Below are positions 57,505-64,000 of a DNA stretch of 64,000 nt, piece after piece. Origin of the DNA: a virus (taxonomy: Duplodnaviria > Caudoviricetes). Below the pieces are notes generated by a model. That model was not told the origin of the DNA. It worked only from the letters and a program-made list of their open reading frames with translations, and made no database searches. Where the stretch lies: IMG/VR virus record IMGVR_UViG_3300029288_000072, positions 134,443 to 198,442 of that record. One strand, 5' to 3'. Each line of letters opens with the position of its first letter. The first letter of the stretch is position 1. A program made the translations under genes and the position numbers.

Positions 57505-57524
57505 TTTAAAATCCTTCTTAAACG

Positions 57525-57532
57525 TATAAATA
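57525..57532 (+). promoter_or_regulatory. T4-type late promoter TATAAATA
   Basis: Exact consensus in divergent gap ahead of + strand operon 57592-62194. Confidence 0.55.
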
Positions 57533-57591
57533 TGTACGACCGCAATAAATATTATACCATCATTTCATTATATTTATCTGAAAGGAACCAA

Positions 57592-57990
57592 ATGATTCAA
57601 AGTATTACTGATAAATTAACTGAACAACTTGACTATATAAAATATAGTCAACAAACATTAAATGGTATATTTTTAGAAAAAGAAGATGTACAATTAATAT
57701 TTAATACTTTAAAAAAATATGATTTAGAATTATTTCCTTTATTAGAAACAGTAGAAAAAATATCATTAAAAATGTTTGATATAGATCATTATTATATGAA
57801 GAATATAGTTAAAGAACTTTTAGAATATTATAATATTATAGAAAATCCTGATTGTATGAAATCAAGACATAAATTGTTTTTTACAGAAAGCAAAAATCTT
57901 GTTAAAAAACCATATTTAAGCGAAAATGTTTTGAAATCAATTAAAGATGAATTTAATAAAAGAAAAATATTTTCTAAGGTATCATCATGA
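57592..57990 (+). CDS. Hypothetical protein
   Basis: Start reassigned to ATG 57592 after AAAGGA. Confidence 0.6.
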   Translation: MIQSITDKLTEQLDYIKYSQQTLNGIFLEKEDVQLIFNTLKKYDLELFPLLETVEKISLKMFDIDHYYMKNIVKELLEYYNIIENPDCMKSRHKLFFTESKNLVKKPYLSENVLKSIKDEFNKRKIFSKVSS

Positions 57991-58916
57991 ATTTTAAATC
58001 ATATGATAGATTAAATACTGTATTAATGGAATCTACAAAAGTTGAAAAGTTTTTTAGTGATAATTTGCGTCCTAAATTAACAGAAGAATTAATGAAACTA
58101 TTAAAAGAATATAATAATAGTCCATTAGCAAAATATATAATTAGAAGAATACATAATCCAGAGTTAAATCCTCCTCAAAAATTAGAAATAGGAAAAGTCG
58201 GAAATTTGGACTCATATAAAATGGATAAGATTTTTTATGATGTACTGTTAGATGTAAAATCTGGTGATATTGGGCCAGGAGAAATATTAATAGGATTAAC
58301 ATTGGGAGATTGGATTGGTGGTACAAAAGGAGATTATGACGTTGAATTAAAGGATATAGGAAGAACAGAAGTAAAATATCTTGTACCATTTGCAAAATCT
58401 ACAAATGTTCCTATGGGATCTGCTAATAAAAAACGTCTAATACATACAGATATACCAGTAATATTTAATACGTTTGTAAAAATTATAAAAGATAAACCAA
58501 AATTATTGAAAAGATACCTTAATGATGAAGAAATTGCATATTTTGCCGATTATACATTAGATCAATTACAAGGTAATAATGATGTATCTACAAATAGTTT
58601 ACGATTATTGGGCAGAATTTTAAGAAGTTCTGAAAATCAAAAAGATAATAGTTTTATAAAAGAAGAAATTACATTTGATAGACTTAAAATTGCAATGGAA
58701 AGTACTTTAAAATTGGCAATGGGAGAAGCAGAATATTTATTGTTTATAGGCAACAGAATAAAAGATGATGACGAAATTGGTGGAAAATATTATTTAATGT
58801 CTAAAGATGATATTAAATATTATATGTTTTATAGGATATATGATGGTGACAGAATAAAGATTGCACCATTTACAACCGAAAAAGATTTTATGCAATCTAG
58901 GATTTATAATAAATGA
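57987..58916 (+). CDS. Putative PD-(D/E)xK nuclease-fold protein
   Basis: GPGE...GDYDV...TEVK; N-terminus MNFKSY...LME. Confidence 0.5.
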   Translation: MNFKSYDRLNTVLMESTKVEKFFSDNLRPKLTEELMKLLKEYNNSPLAKYIIRRIHNPELNPPQKLEIGKVGNLDSYKMDKIFYDVLLDVKSGDIGPGEILIGLTLGDWIGGTKGDYDVELKDIGRTEVKYLVPFAKSTNVPMGSANKKRLIHTDIPVIFNTFVKIIKDKPKLLKRYLNDEEIAYFADYTLDQLQGNNDVSTNSLRLLGRILRSSENQKDNSFIKEEITFDRLKIAMESTLKLAMGEAEYLLFIGNRIKDDDEIGGKYYLMSKDDIKYYMFYRIYDGDRIKIAPFTTEKDFMQSRIYNK

Positions 58917-59536
58917 ATTTTAAATTTTTCTTTTTAGAAAATGAATTAAAAGGAAAGAATCTGGTCATTGTAGATGTACAACCAGAATATCAGCAATATT
59001 TTGAAAAATATGCATTTTCTATTAGAAATTTTACAAAATGGATTAACAAAAAATATAATACGTTTAATAAAGTTTTGTTTTTATTTAATGGGCCATCTTT
59101 GGGTATGATATCGGAAGATGATTTAAAATTATGGTATATAGAAAATGGATTAAAAGAAGATGTAGTTTATGAATCAGAATTTTTTGATAAAGGATATGCG
59201 TTTTTTAGAACATGCATTGATAATAATGTATCTGAATCTGACATTGTTTATCTTGTTAAATATATGTTAGAAAATAATATAAATGATTCCAGACAATTAG
59301 AAGAAACTGGATTATGGGATAAATTTGAAGAAAGATATAGTAATACACAATTAAGAAGTGTTTTAGAACATACAGGAGACATGATTTATATTCCTGATGT
59401 AATGGATGTATTAAAGAAATATGGAAATAATATAGTTCTTGTCGGTGGAGGAGCCGCTGAGTGCTTAAAAGAAGTAGAAATTGCATTAAATGCAAACGAT
59501 CAGGAATATACACAAATAGCCGAATGGGTTTATTAG
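58913..59536 (+). CDS. Isochorismatase/nicotinamidase-like cysteine hydrolase
   Basis: LVIVDVQ (Asp), DKG (Lys), GG..ECL (Cys); N-terminus MNFKFFFLENE. Confidence 0.65.
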   Translation: MNFKFFFLENELKGKNLVIVDVQPEYQQYFEKYAFSIRNFTKWINKKYNTFNKVLFLFNGPSLGMISEDDLKLWYIENGLKEDVVYESEFFDKGYAFFRTCIDNNVSESDIVYLVKYMLENNINDSRQLEETGLWDKFEERYSNTQLRSVLEHTGDMIYIPDVMDVLKKYGNNIVLVGGGAAECLKEVEIALNANDQEYTQIAEWVY

Positions 59537-59545
59537 GAGATAAAA

Positions 59546-59842
59546 ATGTTACCACCAGATGAAGGATTAAATGAAGAAGTCATGCTATGTCCAGCATGTG
59601 GATCATCAGATGTAGAAAAGACAGATACAAAATATAGAATCTGTCCAGGAAATAACGAAATGAATGAATATAAATGTAAAGCATGTGGTGCTACATATTT
59701 TCCTGCTATGGAATCTCATGATAAAACTGGAATTGATAAAATGATAGAAACATGGGGAAGAAAAACAGATCATGATAATTGGCTAAATAATATGAGAAAT
59801 AAAAAAATAACCAAAATATATTTCATAAGAGAATCTAAATGA
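59546..59842 (+). CDS. Zinc-ribbon protein
   Basis: CPACG...CKACG; AGGAG SD. Confidence 0.7.
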   Translation: MLPPDEGLNEEVMLCPACGSSDVEKTDTKYRICPGNNEMNEYKCKACGATYFPAMESHDKTGIDKMIETWGRKTDHDNWLNNMRNKKITKIYFIRESK

Positions 59843-60375
59843 GAATAGTTGGTGTCGATCCAGGTATTAATGGTGGATTATGTTTTATGACCGATGGGGT
59901 TGTTAATGCGGTTGTAAAAACACCTACATATGCATATACAGTAGGTTCGGGAAAGAAATTAAAGAAAAAGAAAATGCTGGATGCAGAAATTGTCGGGGAA
60001 TTGATAAAAAAGTTTAATCCTCATGCAGTCTATATTGAAAAGGTTGGAGGAATGCCAGGACAGGGAATTACATCTACATTTAATTTCGGGTTTGTAACTG
60101 GAATGGTCCACGGAATTTGTGGTGCATTAAAAATAAAAGTAACTACTGTTAGACCTCAAGAATGGAAAAAAGTTATACTAGAAAATGAAGATCATGATAA
60201 AGATGCAGCTATAGGATTTTGTCAACAAAACTTTCCTGATGTCAATTTATTACCAACAAAAAGATCCACAGAACCACATGATGGAATGGCAGAATCTATT
60301 TGTATAGCAATTTTTGGTCTGAAAAATGAAATAAATAAAATAAATACTACCGGAGATTCTACTAATGAAGGCTAG
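59839..60375 (+). CDS. RuvC-like Holliday junction resolvase
   Basis: GVDPG, YIEKV, F.FG, P.EWKK, DGMAE. Confidence 0.88.
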   Translation: MRIVGVDPGINGGLCFMTDGVVNAVVKTPTYAYTVGSGKKLKKKKMLDAEIVGELIKKFNPHAVYIEKVGGMPGQGITSTFNFGFVTGMVHGICGALKIKVTTVRPQEWKKVILENEDHDKDAAIGFCQQNFPDVNLLPTKRSTEPHDGMAESICIAIFGLKNEINKINTTGDSTNEG

Positions 60376-62194
60376 ATATAACGGAATACTATATAAAGTT
60401 ATAGATAAAACAGATAAATTCGTTATTCTGGAAGGAAAAGGTGGATACACATTTAAAGCATACTTAGAAAATGTAATATTTGAAAATAAACCAGAAGAAG
60501 TTCTTCCAAAAGAAAGACCACCTGTAAATGATATTGTAGAACAATCTGAAGATAAAAGCCTAATAGAAATGCCGTATGTAGATACACCAGATCATAGAGG
60601 ATTTGATTTTGCATTTGAAATATTAAATAAAAATTATCCCGATATAAATGAACGTAAACAAGTCTTTATTACTATGTTAAAAGATATTTTTGATGGAAAA
60701 AAAGTTCAAAGCCCTAGAAACGAAGATAATATTATAGAATTAAAAACAGATGAAGATAAACAAGATTTTTCAGATTATCTGTTGTCTGATGATACATTTA
60801 AATTATCAATACAAAAGTTTTTTAATCTATCCATAGAAGATATAATGGATACAATATCAAGACCTACGTTAATAAATGAAATAGATTTAAAAAAGATCGC
60901 AACTCATCCTGATGTAATTGATGCTATCAAAACAGTTTATAGTATAAAAGGGGTTGGTGATAGAAAAGGTGAATATAGTCCAGAAAGAGCAGTAGGTATG
61001 TTAAAACGTGCCGCAGAATTATTAAAGAAAGAAGGTAAATTAACAGAAGAAGAATATATAAAAAGAATAGTCGAATGGCTAAAAAAATCTGGTGATAGAG
61101 GAAAAGGAAGAAAAGTTATAGGTCTAAATGACTTACCTGGAGAAGTTATGTCAGATATTTCAAAACAACCAAAAAAAGAACCAGAAACAAAATTAAATGA
61201 TAATACAAAAGAGTTAGTACAGAAAATTATTGATTATATAGAAAATGGTAAGGTAACATATGATGAAATTAATACTGTTTTAAAAGATGAAAATGCACTA
61301 GAATATTTAGACCAAATAATAACAGTTTTAGAAAAACTTAATGTTGAAATAGTTGACGAAAAAACTCCTGAAACACAAACTCCTGCAATGTCTGGTGAAT
61401 TAAACGAATGTGGTGTTACATCTGCTGCTGCACCAGGAACAATGGATGCAACAACAAATCAAGCAATAGATGGAACTAGTGGAATTGCTATTAGACCATC
61501 ACGATTCGGCAAAAAAGATGAATATAAGTCTGATTTACAAAGAAGACTTGCAGAAGAAGTTGGATATGCCTCTTTAGAAGAAGTTTTTAAAACAGAAGTT
61601 CCTACAACAGGATTAACAAGTATAGAAGTATTAAAAAAGAAACAAAATGATGAAAAACAAAAAGAAGAATTAAAAAAATATTATTCGGAATTAGAAAATA
61701 ATAAACAAACCCCCGAAGAACTAGAAGAAGTAGTTAAAACAAAACTTAGAAAAAGACAAGACGCAACAAGTATATCATCATTAAAAGGTCCATATGAACA
61801 TGCTACAAAAGTTTTAAAAGATAAAGAACAACAAAATACTCCTAAAGAAAAAGAATTGGATGAAGTCGTTTCTACAAATTTAAGACCAACCCAAAATCTA
61901 AGAGATATAACAACATTGAAAGGTCCACATGCGGATGCGGTTAAAGCACAAGGAACTGCAACTACACGAAGAATGCCAGCAATAACCCCTTCTGTATCTA
62001 AAACTGATGATACAAAAAAATATACAAAGCCTAAATCTCACTCTGTCGGAATTATGAGGGAAAAAATTAAAAAATTATTTGATAATATTAATAATTCCGA
62101 TAATTTTGAATTTGATATAGAAGAACAAGAAGAAACAACATTAGAAGAAGAATTTGATTTAAATAAAATAATAGACGAATCACTAAACTCTTGA
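60365..62194 (+). CDS. Multi-module late protein with a sigma70 region 1.1-like domain and tandem repeats
   Basis: GKVTYDEINTVL...LDQIITVLEKLNVEIVDE; two ~43 aa repeats; many L/I-x-E motifs. Confidence 0.7.
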   Translation: MKARYNGILYKVIDKTDKFVILEGKGGYTFKAYLENVIFENKPEEVLPKERPPVNDIVEQSEDKSLIEMPYVDTPDHRGFDFAFEILNKNYPDINERKQVFITMLKDIFDGKKVQSPRNEDNIIELKTDEDKQDFSDYLLSDDTFKLSIQKFFNLSIEDIMDTISRPTLINEIDLKKIATHPDVIDAIKTVYSIKGVGDRKGEYSPERAVGMLKRAAELLKKEGKLTEEEYIKRIVEWLKKSGDRGKGRKVIGLNDLPGEVMSDISKQPKKEPETKLNDNTKELVQKIIDYIENGKVTYDEINTVLKDENALEYLDQIITVLEKLNVEIVDEKTPETQTPAMSGELNECGVTSAAAPGTMDATTNQAIDGTSGIAIRPSRFGKKDEYKSDLQRRLAEEVGYASLEEVFKTEVPTTGLTSIEVLKKKQNDEKQKEELKKYYSELENNKQTPEELEEVVKTKLRKRQDATSISSLKGPYEHATKVLKDKEQQNTPKEKELDEVVSTNLRPTQNLRDITTLKGPHADAVKAQGTATTRRMPAITPSVSKTDDTKKYTKPKSHSVGIMREKIKKLFDNINNSDNFEFDIEEQEETTLEEEFDLNKIIDESLNS

Positions 62195-62245
62195 TTTCTA
62201 TTTTAAACTCGCTATAATAGATTATTGCCCATAAGGATAATCTAA

Positions 62246-63565: not shown

Positions 63566-63579
63566 AATAACCTCAAAAT

Positions 63580-63591
63580 TATTTATAAATA
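63580..63591. promoter_or_regulatory. Overlapping bidirectional late promoters (TATTTATAAATA)
   Basis: TATAAATA on both strands between divergent genes at 63565 and 63610. Confidence 0.6.
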
Positions 63592-63609
63592 TATTATACG
63601 AGAAATATT

Positions 63610-63936
63610 ATGTTATTCAAAGAATATTTTTTATTAGAAAGAAAATCATTAGAAGAAAAAAGTATTTTTATCCAAAAATGGTATGAGGAAGCATTGGATA
63701 AAATTAGAAAAGGAGATTTCATAGTCTGTTCCGGTTTAAAAATGTCTTTCGGCAAATTATACGGAATAAAAGTAGTTGGTGAATATAATACAGATATAGG
63801 TTTTAGAAACGTCTATTATTTCGGTGTATTGGATGATGAACAACAACCATCAAGTGCTACTGGCAGAGCAGATATAATAGATATTCCAACAGGCGGAAAA
63901 CAAGGAGGCATATCTAGATATATAAATTGTACATAA
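63610..63936 (+). CDS. Hypothetical late protein with capsid-targeting-like N-terminus
   Basis: MLFKEYFLLE; late promoter upstream. Confidence 0.65.
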   Translation: MLFKEYFLLERKSLEEKSIFIQKWYEEALDKIRKGDFIVCSGLKMSFGKLYGIKVVGEYNTDIGFRNVYYFGVLDDEQQPSSATGRADIIDIPTGGKQGGISRYINCT

Positions 63937-63964
63937 TAATGTATATAAGTATAAAAATAAGTAT

Positions 63965-63992
63965 TTGACAAATCAAAATTATATGATATAAT
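63965..63992 (+). promoter_or_regulatory. Consensus sigma70 promoter (TTGACA-16-TATAAT with extended TG)
   Basis: TTGACA at 63965-70, TG at 63984-85, TATAAT at 63987-92. Confidence 0.75.
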
Positions 63993-64000
63993 ATTATATA

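Follow-up and report, generated by a model that had tools for sequence, protein, structure and literature searches.

A 609-aa protein of an uncultured T4-like phage carries a sigma-70 region 1.1-like module and a copy of the capsid protein maturation site

We analyzed 64,000 nucleotides of viral DNA (hereafter the window), the last 64 kb of the 198,442-bp contig IMGVR_UViG_3300029288_000072, which belongs to an uncultured low-GC (about 27%) T4-like phage. The open reading frame (ORF) at window positions 60365..62194 (+) is a genuine gene and encodes a protein of 609 aa (P0001). Two parts of this protein can be recognized by sequence comparison: residues 346-382 are a copy of the L-x-E cleavage site of the phage capsid protein together with the first ~30 residues of the mature protein, and residues 279-338 are a homolog of region 1.1 of sigma-70 (sigma-1.1). 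Because it carries a copy of the capsid maturation site and a sigma-1.1 module and is predicted to be expressed late, the protein probably becomes part of the phage head and is cleaved there. An earlier note on this DNA had described the ORF correctly, had likened one of its peptides (residues 282-332, nt 61208-61360) to RpoD region 1.1 and had proposed a virion polyprotein that is processed by the prohead protease.

A copy of the capsid protein maturation site

The capsid-derived segment (61400..61510, +) opens with L-N-E (residues 346-348), continues with ~34 residues that resemble the mature capsid protein, and is Gly/Ala-rich, conserved and predicted to be disordered. Its relationship to the capsid protein is evident from BLASTP comparisons within single genomes. 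Specifically, the family protein of genome G003 is identical to its own capsid protein at 26/44 positions (E-value: 8e-10) and that of genome G001 at 24/44 positions (E-value: 7e-9), and the window protein matches the G001 capsid protein at 15/30 positions (E-value: 4e-5). Matches to capsid protein residues ~40-80 with E-values ≤ 3e-4 were obtained for a total of 19 family members. BLASTP comparison of the family with other head proteins gave no match, and the scaffold protein of the clade gave nothing below an E-value of 0.2. The site occurs exactly twice per genome, in the capsid protein and in the family protein, and the segment has been kept over deep divergence.

In T4, gp21 takes 65 residues off gp23, a cut that was established experimentally; the next 25 residues of gp23 form the N-fist, which touches four subunits, and the N-terminal regions of gp23 are disordered within the prohead before expansion (PMC9958956). 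The initial L-x-E of the segment precedes a conserved GVQPM by 50 residues, compared with 48 residues for the T4 gp23 cut (after residue 65), and it is the only conserved L/I-x-E near the register of T4 E65. In the capsid protein of G003, the site reads I-L-K-E and is followed by S-G-T-A-S.

The sigma-70 region 1.1 module

Region 1.1 gates the DNA channel of RNA polymerase (RNAP), and some phages exploit it indirectly, as T7 does with Gp2. In the 609-aa protein, the module (61199..61378, +) stands just before the capsid-derived segment. The Pfam model Sigma70_r1_1 (PF03979), a comparison that the earlier note had suggested, matches residues 293-338 with an E-value of 6.9e-7 and a score of 29.6 bits, above the curated cutoff of 22.5; in a six-frame search of the genome, the score was 34.7 bits. 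In the reciprocal direction, a profile built from the seven full-length members of the family was run against every PDB sequence (177,635), and only three matches were found at E ≤ 10. The top two of these are RpoD N-termini, namely 7YE1_F residues 7-92 (E-value: 0.0038) and the sigma-1.1 domain of Thermotoga maritima, 2K6X (E-value: 0.09), and they are the sole PDB matches at E < 1. The RpoD-like pattern that had been read from the letters is borne out by both searches.

The fold comparison that had been suggested for this segment gave a mixed outcome. When a model of the domain was compared with 350,542 chains using Foldseek, 2K6X was found at rank 4 and Bacillus subtilis 5MWW at rank 12, with template modelling (TM) scores of 0.49-0.50 on the target; solved sigma-1.1 domains were retrieved, but with weak scores (TM ~0.5, E about 2). 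The predicted order of secondary structure elements is that of sigma-1.1. The net charge of the module is -9 over 62 residues and lies between -3 and -9 in all 7 close relatives. The model has a predicted local distance difference test (pLDDT) score of only 62-65.

The 609-aa protein is not a sigma factor, because nothing like regions 1.2-4 follows the module: Pfam searches at E ≤ 1 find no other sigma domain, which rules out a full or group 1 sigma factor, and the rest of the protein is unrelated to sigma and largely disordered. Within the family, the module is confined to the close subfamily. Distant positional orthologs (described below) carry other small modules in its place, and PF03979 has no match in the four related records.

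A recent acquisition of the module from the rpoD gene of a host was considered and rejected, as no protein sharing words with it was found in a set of 5.8 billion sequences and a phmmer search of PDB sequences returned no sigma factor. The 652-aa RpoD of 7YE1 is from what we take to be an alphaproteobacterial (Caulobacter) holoenzyme; together with the 27% GC content and the pelagiphage-type inserts found in relatives, this hints at a SAR11-like host.

Candidate protease sites

The earlier note had read L/I-x-E tripeptides as separators between modules. The tripeptides it listed are present and those at module boundaries are conserved in position, but by number alone L/I-x-E exceeds the expectation from composition only slightly (17, compared with 10.7 +/- 2.9 in shuffled sequences; p about 0.02). 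Conservation is more informative than number: L/I-x-E is the most position-conserved tripeptide class in both family alignments (A2 and A3). Nine conserved columns were counted in A2, compared with 0-6 for 14 control tripeptide classes, and five in A3, compared with 0-1; the mirror pattern of the tripeptide has two conserved columns in A2 and none in A3.

Three candidate sites, all on the + strand, accompany the L-N-E of the capsid-derived segment. L-I-E at residues 66-68 (60560..60568) is present in 6/7 close relatives and lies in a low-pLDDT linker before a helical domain, I-N-E at residues 170-172 (60872..60880) is likewise present in 6/7 close relatives and lies at low pLDDT before the core domain, and L-A-E at residues 395-397 (61547..61555), after the capsid-derived segment, is found in 6/7 close and 6/8 distant relatives. 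All four conserved sites (66-68, 170-172, 346-348 and 395-397) lie in low-pLDDT linkers at module boundaries. Another conserved L/I-x-E (residues 21-23) is located inside a beta strand, where its role is probably structural. A candidate enzyme, Peptidase_S77, is encoded in genomes G001, G003 and G004 (E-values: 1e-27 to 1e-30).

Genomic context and late promoters

Distant members of the family are found on four viral contigs (L001-L004). Local BLAST comparison of these contigs with the window showed a common order: leftward, a glycosyltransferase-like gene, UvsW and UvsY; rightward, a small ORF, variable ORFs, a zinc-ribbon ORF, RuvC, the family protein and RNase H; and then gp4, again leftward. 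Based on this strict synteny, the distant proteins are positional orthologs of the 609-aa protein. In L001, the family gene is followed by RNase H, gp4, portal, the Peptidase_S77 prohead protease, scaffold and major capsid protein genes, and in relatives the family gene is ~2 kb from the head module. The contig of the window ends right after gp4 (63566-64000). As head genes directly follow gp4 in relatives, the missing ~16% of the genome probably starts with the head module.

An exact T4-type late box, TATAAATA, at 57525..57532 (+) heads a packed block of genes (57532..62194) that ends with the 609-aa ORF and in which genes overlap by 4-11 nt or stand 9 nt apart. A late box at the equivalent place heads the block in L001-L004. 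Two overlapping one-mismatch variants, AATAAATA, are found closer to the gene, at 60330-60337 and 60339-60346 (+), 18 nt upstream of the start codon, and are followed by GGAG at 60352-60355; these variants are weak evidence alone because there are 90 copies in this AT-rich genome. In all four orthologous loci (L001-L004), exact TATAAATA occurs 22-29 nt before the start codon of the family gene, where the chance of an exact box is about 0.016 per 40-nt window, and this spacing resembles that before the scaffold and protease genes. On this promoter evidence, the family genes are predicted to be expressed late from T4-type promoters. The end of the late unit is marked by a sigma-70-type promoter for the downstream RNase H gene (TTGATT-16-TATAAT, 62191..62218, +), which is near-consensus (TTGAxx, 16-17 nt, TATAAT) in all five phages (the window and L001-L004). 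No late box was found before RNase H in 3/3 loci.

RNase H appears as an early gene wedged between late genes. At the other end of the block, the listed start codon of ORF 57532-57990 overlaps the late box at 57525; the real start is likely the in-frame ATG at 57592, behind GAAAGGAA, which gives a product of 132 aa matching the 132-140 aa orthologs in L001-L004. In the divergent intergenic region at 57505-57591, an extended -10-like sequence on the minus strand, TGGTATAAT, faces uvsY. As this sequence lies beside the late box, early-type and late promoters appear to be arranged back to back.

Protein family and module anatomy

Four metagenome proteins are 40-44% identical to the 609-aa protein over two thirds of its length or more, and an exhaustive profile search of 1.84 billion representatives returned only 25 related clusters. 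No Pfam domain could be recognized in the relatives, and no homolog of the 609-aa protein was found among cultured phages; cultured-phage matches of relatives P0012 and P0006 involve small inserted modules only, and tblastn with the 43-aa capsid-derived segment gave no match. PHROGs gave only an insignificant match for the 609-aa protein and none for its L001 ortholog. Scans of viral contigs and metagenomes for the close family yielded no loci, and it was the distant branch alone that provided them. Identification as a tape-measure protein was rejected on the basis of length variation (463-670 aa) and disorder.

The anatomy of the protein was drawn from AlphaFold models and the family alignments; all coordinates below are on the + strand. 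Residues 1-40 (60365..60484) form a small SH3-like beta domain (AlphaFold2 pLDDT 80-84) with weak Foldseek matches to the KorB C-terminal domain and to Hfq, SH3 and Tudor domains. This domain is the family signature common to all distant members and is kept in P0011-P0025. It is followed by an acidic, proline-rich linker, by a helical domain (residues 69-165, 60569..60859) that also occurs alone or fused in P0022, P0024 and P0026, and by a helical core domain (residues 173-268, 60881..61168; pLDDT 79-89). The core is the most conserved part of the protein and is found in P0008-P0010 as well; no convincing fold match to it was found in PDB or BFVD. Searches with the whole protein using Foldseek and the ESM Atlas returned nothing usable. 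At least four folded modules are present, of which sigma-1.1 alone could be identified, and no enzyme domain was found.

Beyond the capsid-derived segment, the disordered region contains two diverged tandem repeats (residues 452-483 and 497-528; 61718..61948), each beginning with L-x-E. The earlier note had seen two repeats of ~43 aa; the repeats are real (16/32 identical, E-value: 6e-10), with a period of 45 aa. They are no longer detected in the DNA by Tandem Repeats Finder. Relatives have a single copy, and the duplication is specific to the window lineage. The protein ends with a basic amphipathic helix (residues 559-576) and then a very acidic tail with F-E-F (62039..62191), a conserved element of the family.

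The slot that precedes the capsid-site copy is occupied by unrelated small folded modules in other lineages, and this module swapping fits exchangeable cargo. Small inserted modules that are elsewhere separate ORFs are also found in P0012 (residues 162-243) and P0006 (residues 502-542). One of them is known from Pelagibacter, Roseobacter, Methylophilales and Flavobacterium phages and from Nitrosopumilaceae viruses, and another from KVP40-like Vibrio phages. The family serves as a vehicle for mobile mini-domains.

Proposed role and alternative explanations

We propose that the 609-aa protein is synthesized late in infection, is taken into the prohead and is processed by a T4-type protease acting at the conserved sites; on balance, the sequence features make this probable. 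The capsid-derived segment, the sole targeting-like element of the protein, would bring it into the assembling prohead, possibly with the help of the SH3-like domain, in the manner of the T4 capsid-targeting sequence. The prohead protease would then cut after E68, E172, E348 and E397, and probably at further sites, to give a ~11 kDa helical piece, a ~19 kDa acidic piece comprising the conserved core and sigma-1.1, a ~5 kDa capsid-like peptide and the disordered tail. By analogy with the T4 internal proteins and Alt, folded pieces would be retained in the head and delivered to the cell along with the DNA; that some pieces do so is a tentative suggestion, possible rather than probable. Action of the sigma-1.1 piece on the host RNAP is speculative and rather unlikely; if it occurs, this acidic piece might occupy or compete for the DNA channel of the enzyme. 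The reading as a whole, in which the capsid-derived segment is a new internal targeting and cleavage signal and a sigma-1.1 domain that has been loaded, released and injected plugs or competes for the RNAP channel, is equally improbable.

Several observations weigh against this proposal. The N-terminus is a folded domain and lacks a T4-style targeting peptide of 10-20 residues ending in L/I-x-E. Directly upstream of the 609-aa ORF of the window, there are one-mismatch late boxes only, and the orthologous promoter and context data come from L001-L004, which belong to the distant branch, and not from the contigs of the close relatives P0002-P0007. The nearest neighbours (RuvC, RNase H, UvsY and UvsW) are recombination genes rather than virion genes, and searches of the window's own genome for Peptidase_S77 and Gp23 were negative, the contig ending just after gp4. 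In the MAFFT alignment, the register with respect to T4 E65 is off by 6 residues and ambiguous, and co-variation of the capsid-derived segment with the capsid protein of the same genome was not seen. As for the sigma-1.1 module, the Pfam cutoff is passed by the window phage only, one other close relative matches at E ≤ 10, and any match at all, even at E ≤ 10, is limited to 2/7 close relatives. The Foldseek matches are weak alone, and VIA-align, which gave 5MWW as the best match for the module, did so with a Z-score of 5.2, middling for this tool, and a root mean square deviation of 5.4 over 66 residues. The link to the head and its protease that the earlier note had drawn is partly supported by the conserved late promoters, the proximity of the head module and the capsid-site copy, but not by the immediate neighbours, which are recombination genes, and the protease and capsid genes themselves are seen only in relatives.

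It is unlikely that the protein is instead a disposable component of the prohead core (a scaffold accessory) that is chopped up, with fragments that exit before DNA packaging, sigma-1.1 as a compact acidic filler and nothing injected. T4 provides a parallel in gp22, gp67 and gp68, which are broken down to small peptides (PMC9958956), and the clade has no gene in the gap between portal and protease, where T4 has 67 and 68. The abundance of conserved L/I-x-E sites, the long stretches of acidic, disordered sequence and the acidic tail would suit such a role. However, the protein has no sequence relation to gp22, gp67 or gp68, its core domain is strongly conserved, family lengths run from 463 to 670 aa, and the lineage-specific folded modules that precede the capsid-site copy are more in keeping with cargo or an arms race than with a structural role. 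The capsid-like segment could also serve as an anchor in the shell, filling vacant N-fist sites (for example at the portal or vertices) as part of a minor structural or decoration protein. Its similarity does continue for ~30 residues past the cut, into the part of the mature capsid protein that in T4 forms the N-fist, and is conserved over deep divergence, but the segment is predicted to be disordered and the other conserved L/I-x-E sites at module boundaries would be left unexplained; we consider this very unlikely.

The same very low probability is given to a late cytoplasmic factor that never enters the head, in which sigma-1.1 would bind RNAP, for example to assist or insulate late transcription by gp55/gp33, and the capsid-like segment would be a protease decoy or timer. 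The sigma-1.1 homology, the location of the gene among recombination and replication genes and the use of T4-type late promoters by the phage are all compatible with such a factor; the distant positional orthologs, however, have retained the capsid-site copy together with the N-terminal domain and L/I-x-E sites but lack sigma-1.1, and these conserved features point to the head rather than to transcription. Finally, the likeness to sigma-1.1 could be convergent, the module being a generic acidic helix-strand-helix-helix-strand unit with no link to sigma. The absence of any sigma factor from the phmmer results and of any word-sharing database protein would be expected in that case, as would the weak fold scores, which other winged-helix-like domains nearly equal. 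Nevertheless, the PF03979 score is above the curated cutoff, RpoD N-termini are the top two of three profile matches among 177,635 sequences, and two structural aligners independently place solved sigma-1.1 domains at or near the top, such that convergence is quite improbable.

Comparison with known systems

When T4 was searched with gp23 residues 57-101, the second match was gene 61.1, an uncharacterized 54-aa ORF (L013:667-831, corresponding to NC_000866 18966-19130, minus strand). gp61.1 is identical to gp23 residues 57-93 at 17/37 positions (46%, E-value: 6e-9), a region that spans the gp21 cut and the N-fist, and the first codons of its start (MKTFKEFIKE) match those of ipI, ipII and ipIII, the T4 capsid-targeting sequence. 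As gp61.1 joins this targeting peptide to a gp23-like segment, the T4 targeting peptide therefore resembles the capsid maturation site, which suggests that the targeting sequence may derive from, or mimic, that site. Like the 609-aa protein, gp61.1 contains a copy of the capsid maturation site with N-fist-like residues; unlike the family, it is tiny, has no other domains, is encoded upstream of the primase gene and has an N-terminal targeting peptide of the internal-protein type.

Homology of the 609-aa protein to T4 IPI-III, gp61.1, gp21, gp22, gp67 and gp68 was rejected because hhalign probabilities were below 1% (Alt was not among the proteins compared), as was homology to Inh, a minor head protein and protease inhibitor of T4 (0.2-0.3%). 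The resemblance to IPI, IPII, IPIII and Alt is one of organization: late T4-type genes, variable cargo and, as predicted here, entry into the prohead by means of a short peptide and an L/I-x-E cut. In PMC7411985, PMC9958956 and PMC5512222, the T4 internal proteins and Alt are described as gp21 substrates that have a capsid-targeting sequence and are ejected with the DNA, Alt then acting on host RNAP. In contrast to their 10-residue N-terminal signal, the putative signal of the 609-aa protein is internal, derived from the capsid protein and extended into its mature side, and in place of a single N-terminal trim there are several conserved sites, as in a polyprotein.

The ejection proteins of SPN3US and phiKZ are also head-internal; according to the available text of PMC7411985, they are processed by a prohead protease related to that of T4, which cuts at a motif with a terminal Glu, and they include transcription machinery that is delivered to the host. 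They differ in that, as described there, one long N-terminal propeptide (111-130 residues) is lost and the families are unrelated, and a copy of the capsid site is not described in that text. Polyvalent proteins (Iyer et al. 2017, PMC5512222) are multi-module phage proteins encoded near virion genes, for which packaging, injection and in some cases processing have been predicted. They differ from the 609-aa protein, which has one recognizable module and no enzyme domain that could be found, in having recognizable enzymatic domains and often a peptidase of their own; the word "Sigma" is absent from that paper.

With sigma-1.1 of sigma-70 factors (PF03979; 2K6X, 5MWW), the module shares its profile match, the order of its secondary structure and a strong negative charge, but it lies midway in a non-sigma protein and is weakly conserved even within the family. 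T7 Gp2 and Ocr target the DNA channel of RNAP or mimic DNA (PMC3778932, PMC7064336). A comparable action is proposed for the sigma-1.1 piece, although Gp2 and Ocr are early cytoplasmic proteins with unrelated folds.

If the proposal is true, the T4 model of packaged, processed and injected proteins would be extended in two ways. The targeting and cleavage signal would be borrowed from the capsid maturation site and set inside a polyprotein, a principle that, as gp61.1 hints, may be older and wider than this clade. In addition, the cargo would include a domain of the host primary sigma factor, which would represent a new route of host takeover and the first injected decoy derived from a host sigma factor domain. 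The swappable module slot could then supply new injected effectors as well as a blueprint for packing T4-type heads with foreign proteins.

Other observations

Two variations in gene content were noted near the family and capsid genes of relatives. In G003, a 666-aa serine/threonine-kinase-like gene (L003:12088-14088; PHROG 2361, E-value: 3e-63) replaces RNase H after the family gene, and in G001, genes for an HNH endonuclease and a TnpB-type transposase directly follow the major capsid gene (L001:18997-21362).

Other ORFs of the late block begin with peptides that end in L-x-E at residues 10-15: MNFKSYDRLNTVLME, MRFNDYFGLSILVE, MLFKEYFLLE and MNLKKYCLKE. ORFs of this type, with conserved N-termini, are found in the window (57987-58916, 58913-59536 and 63610-63936) and at L001:7688-9229, L002:7678-9228 and L003:8394-8975. 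These peptides parallel the F-x-x-x-hydrophobic-L-x-E that precedes the cleavage site in the capsid protein of the clade and are therefore candidate capsid-targeting sequences.

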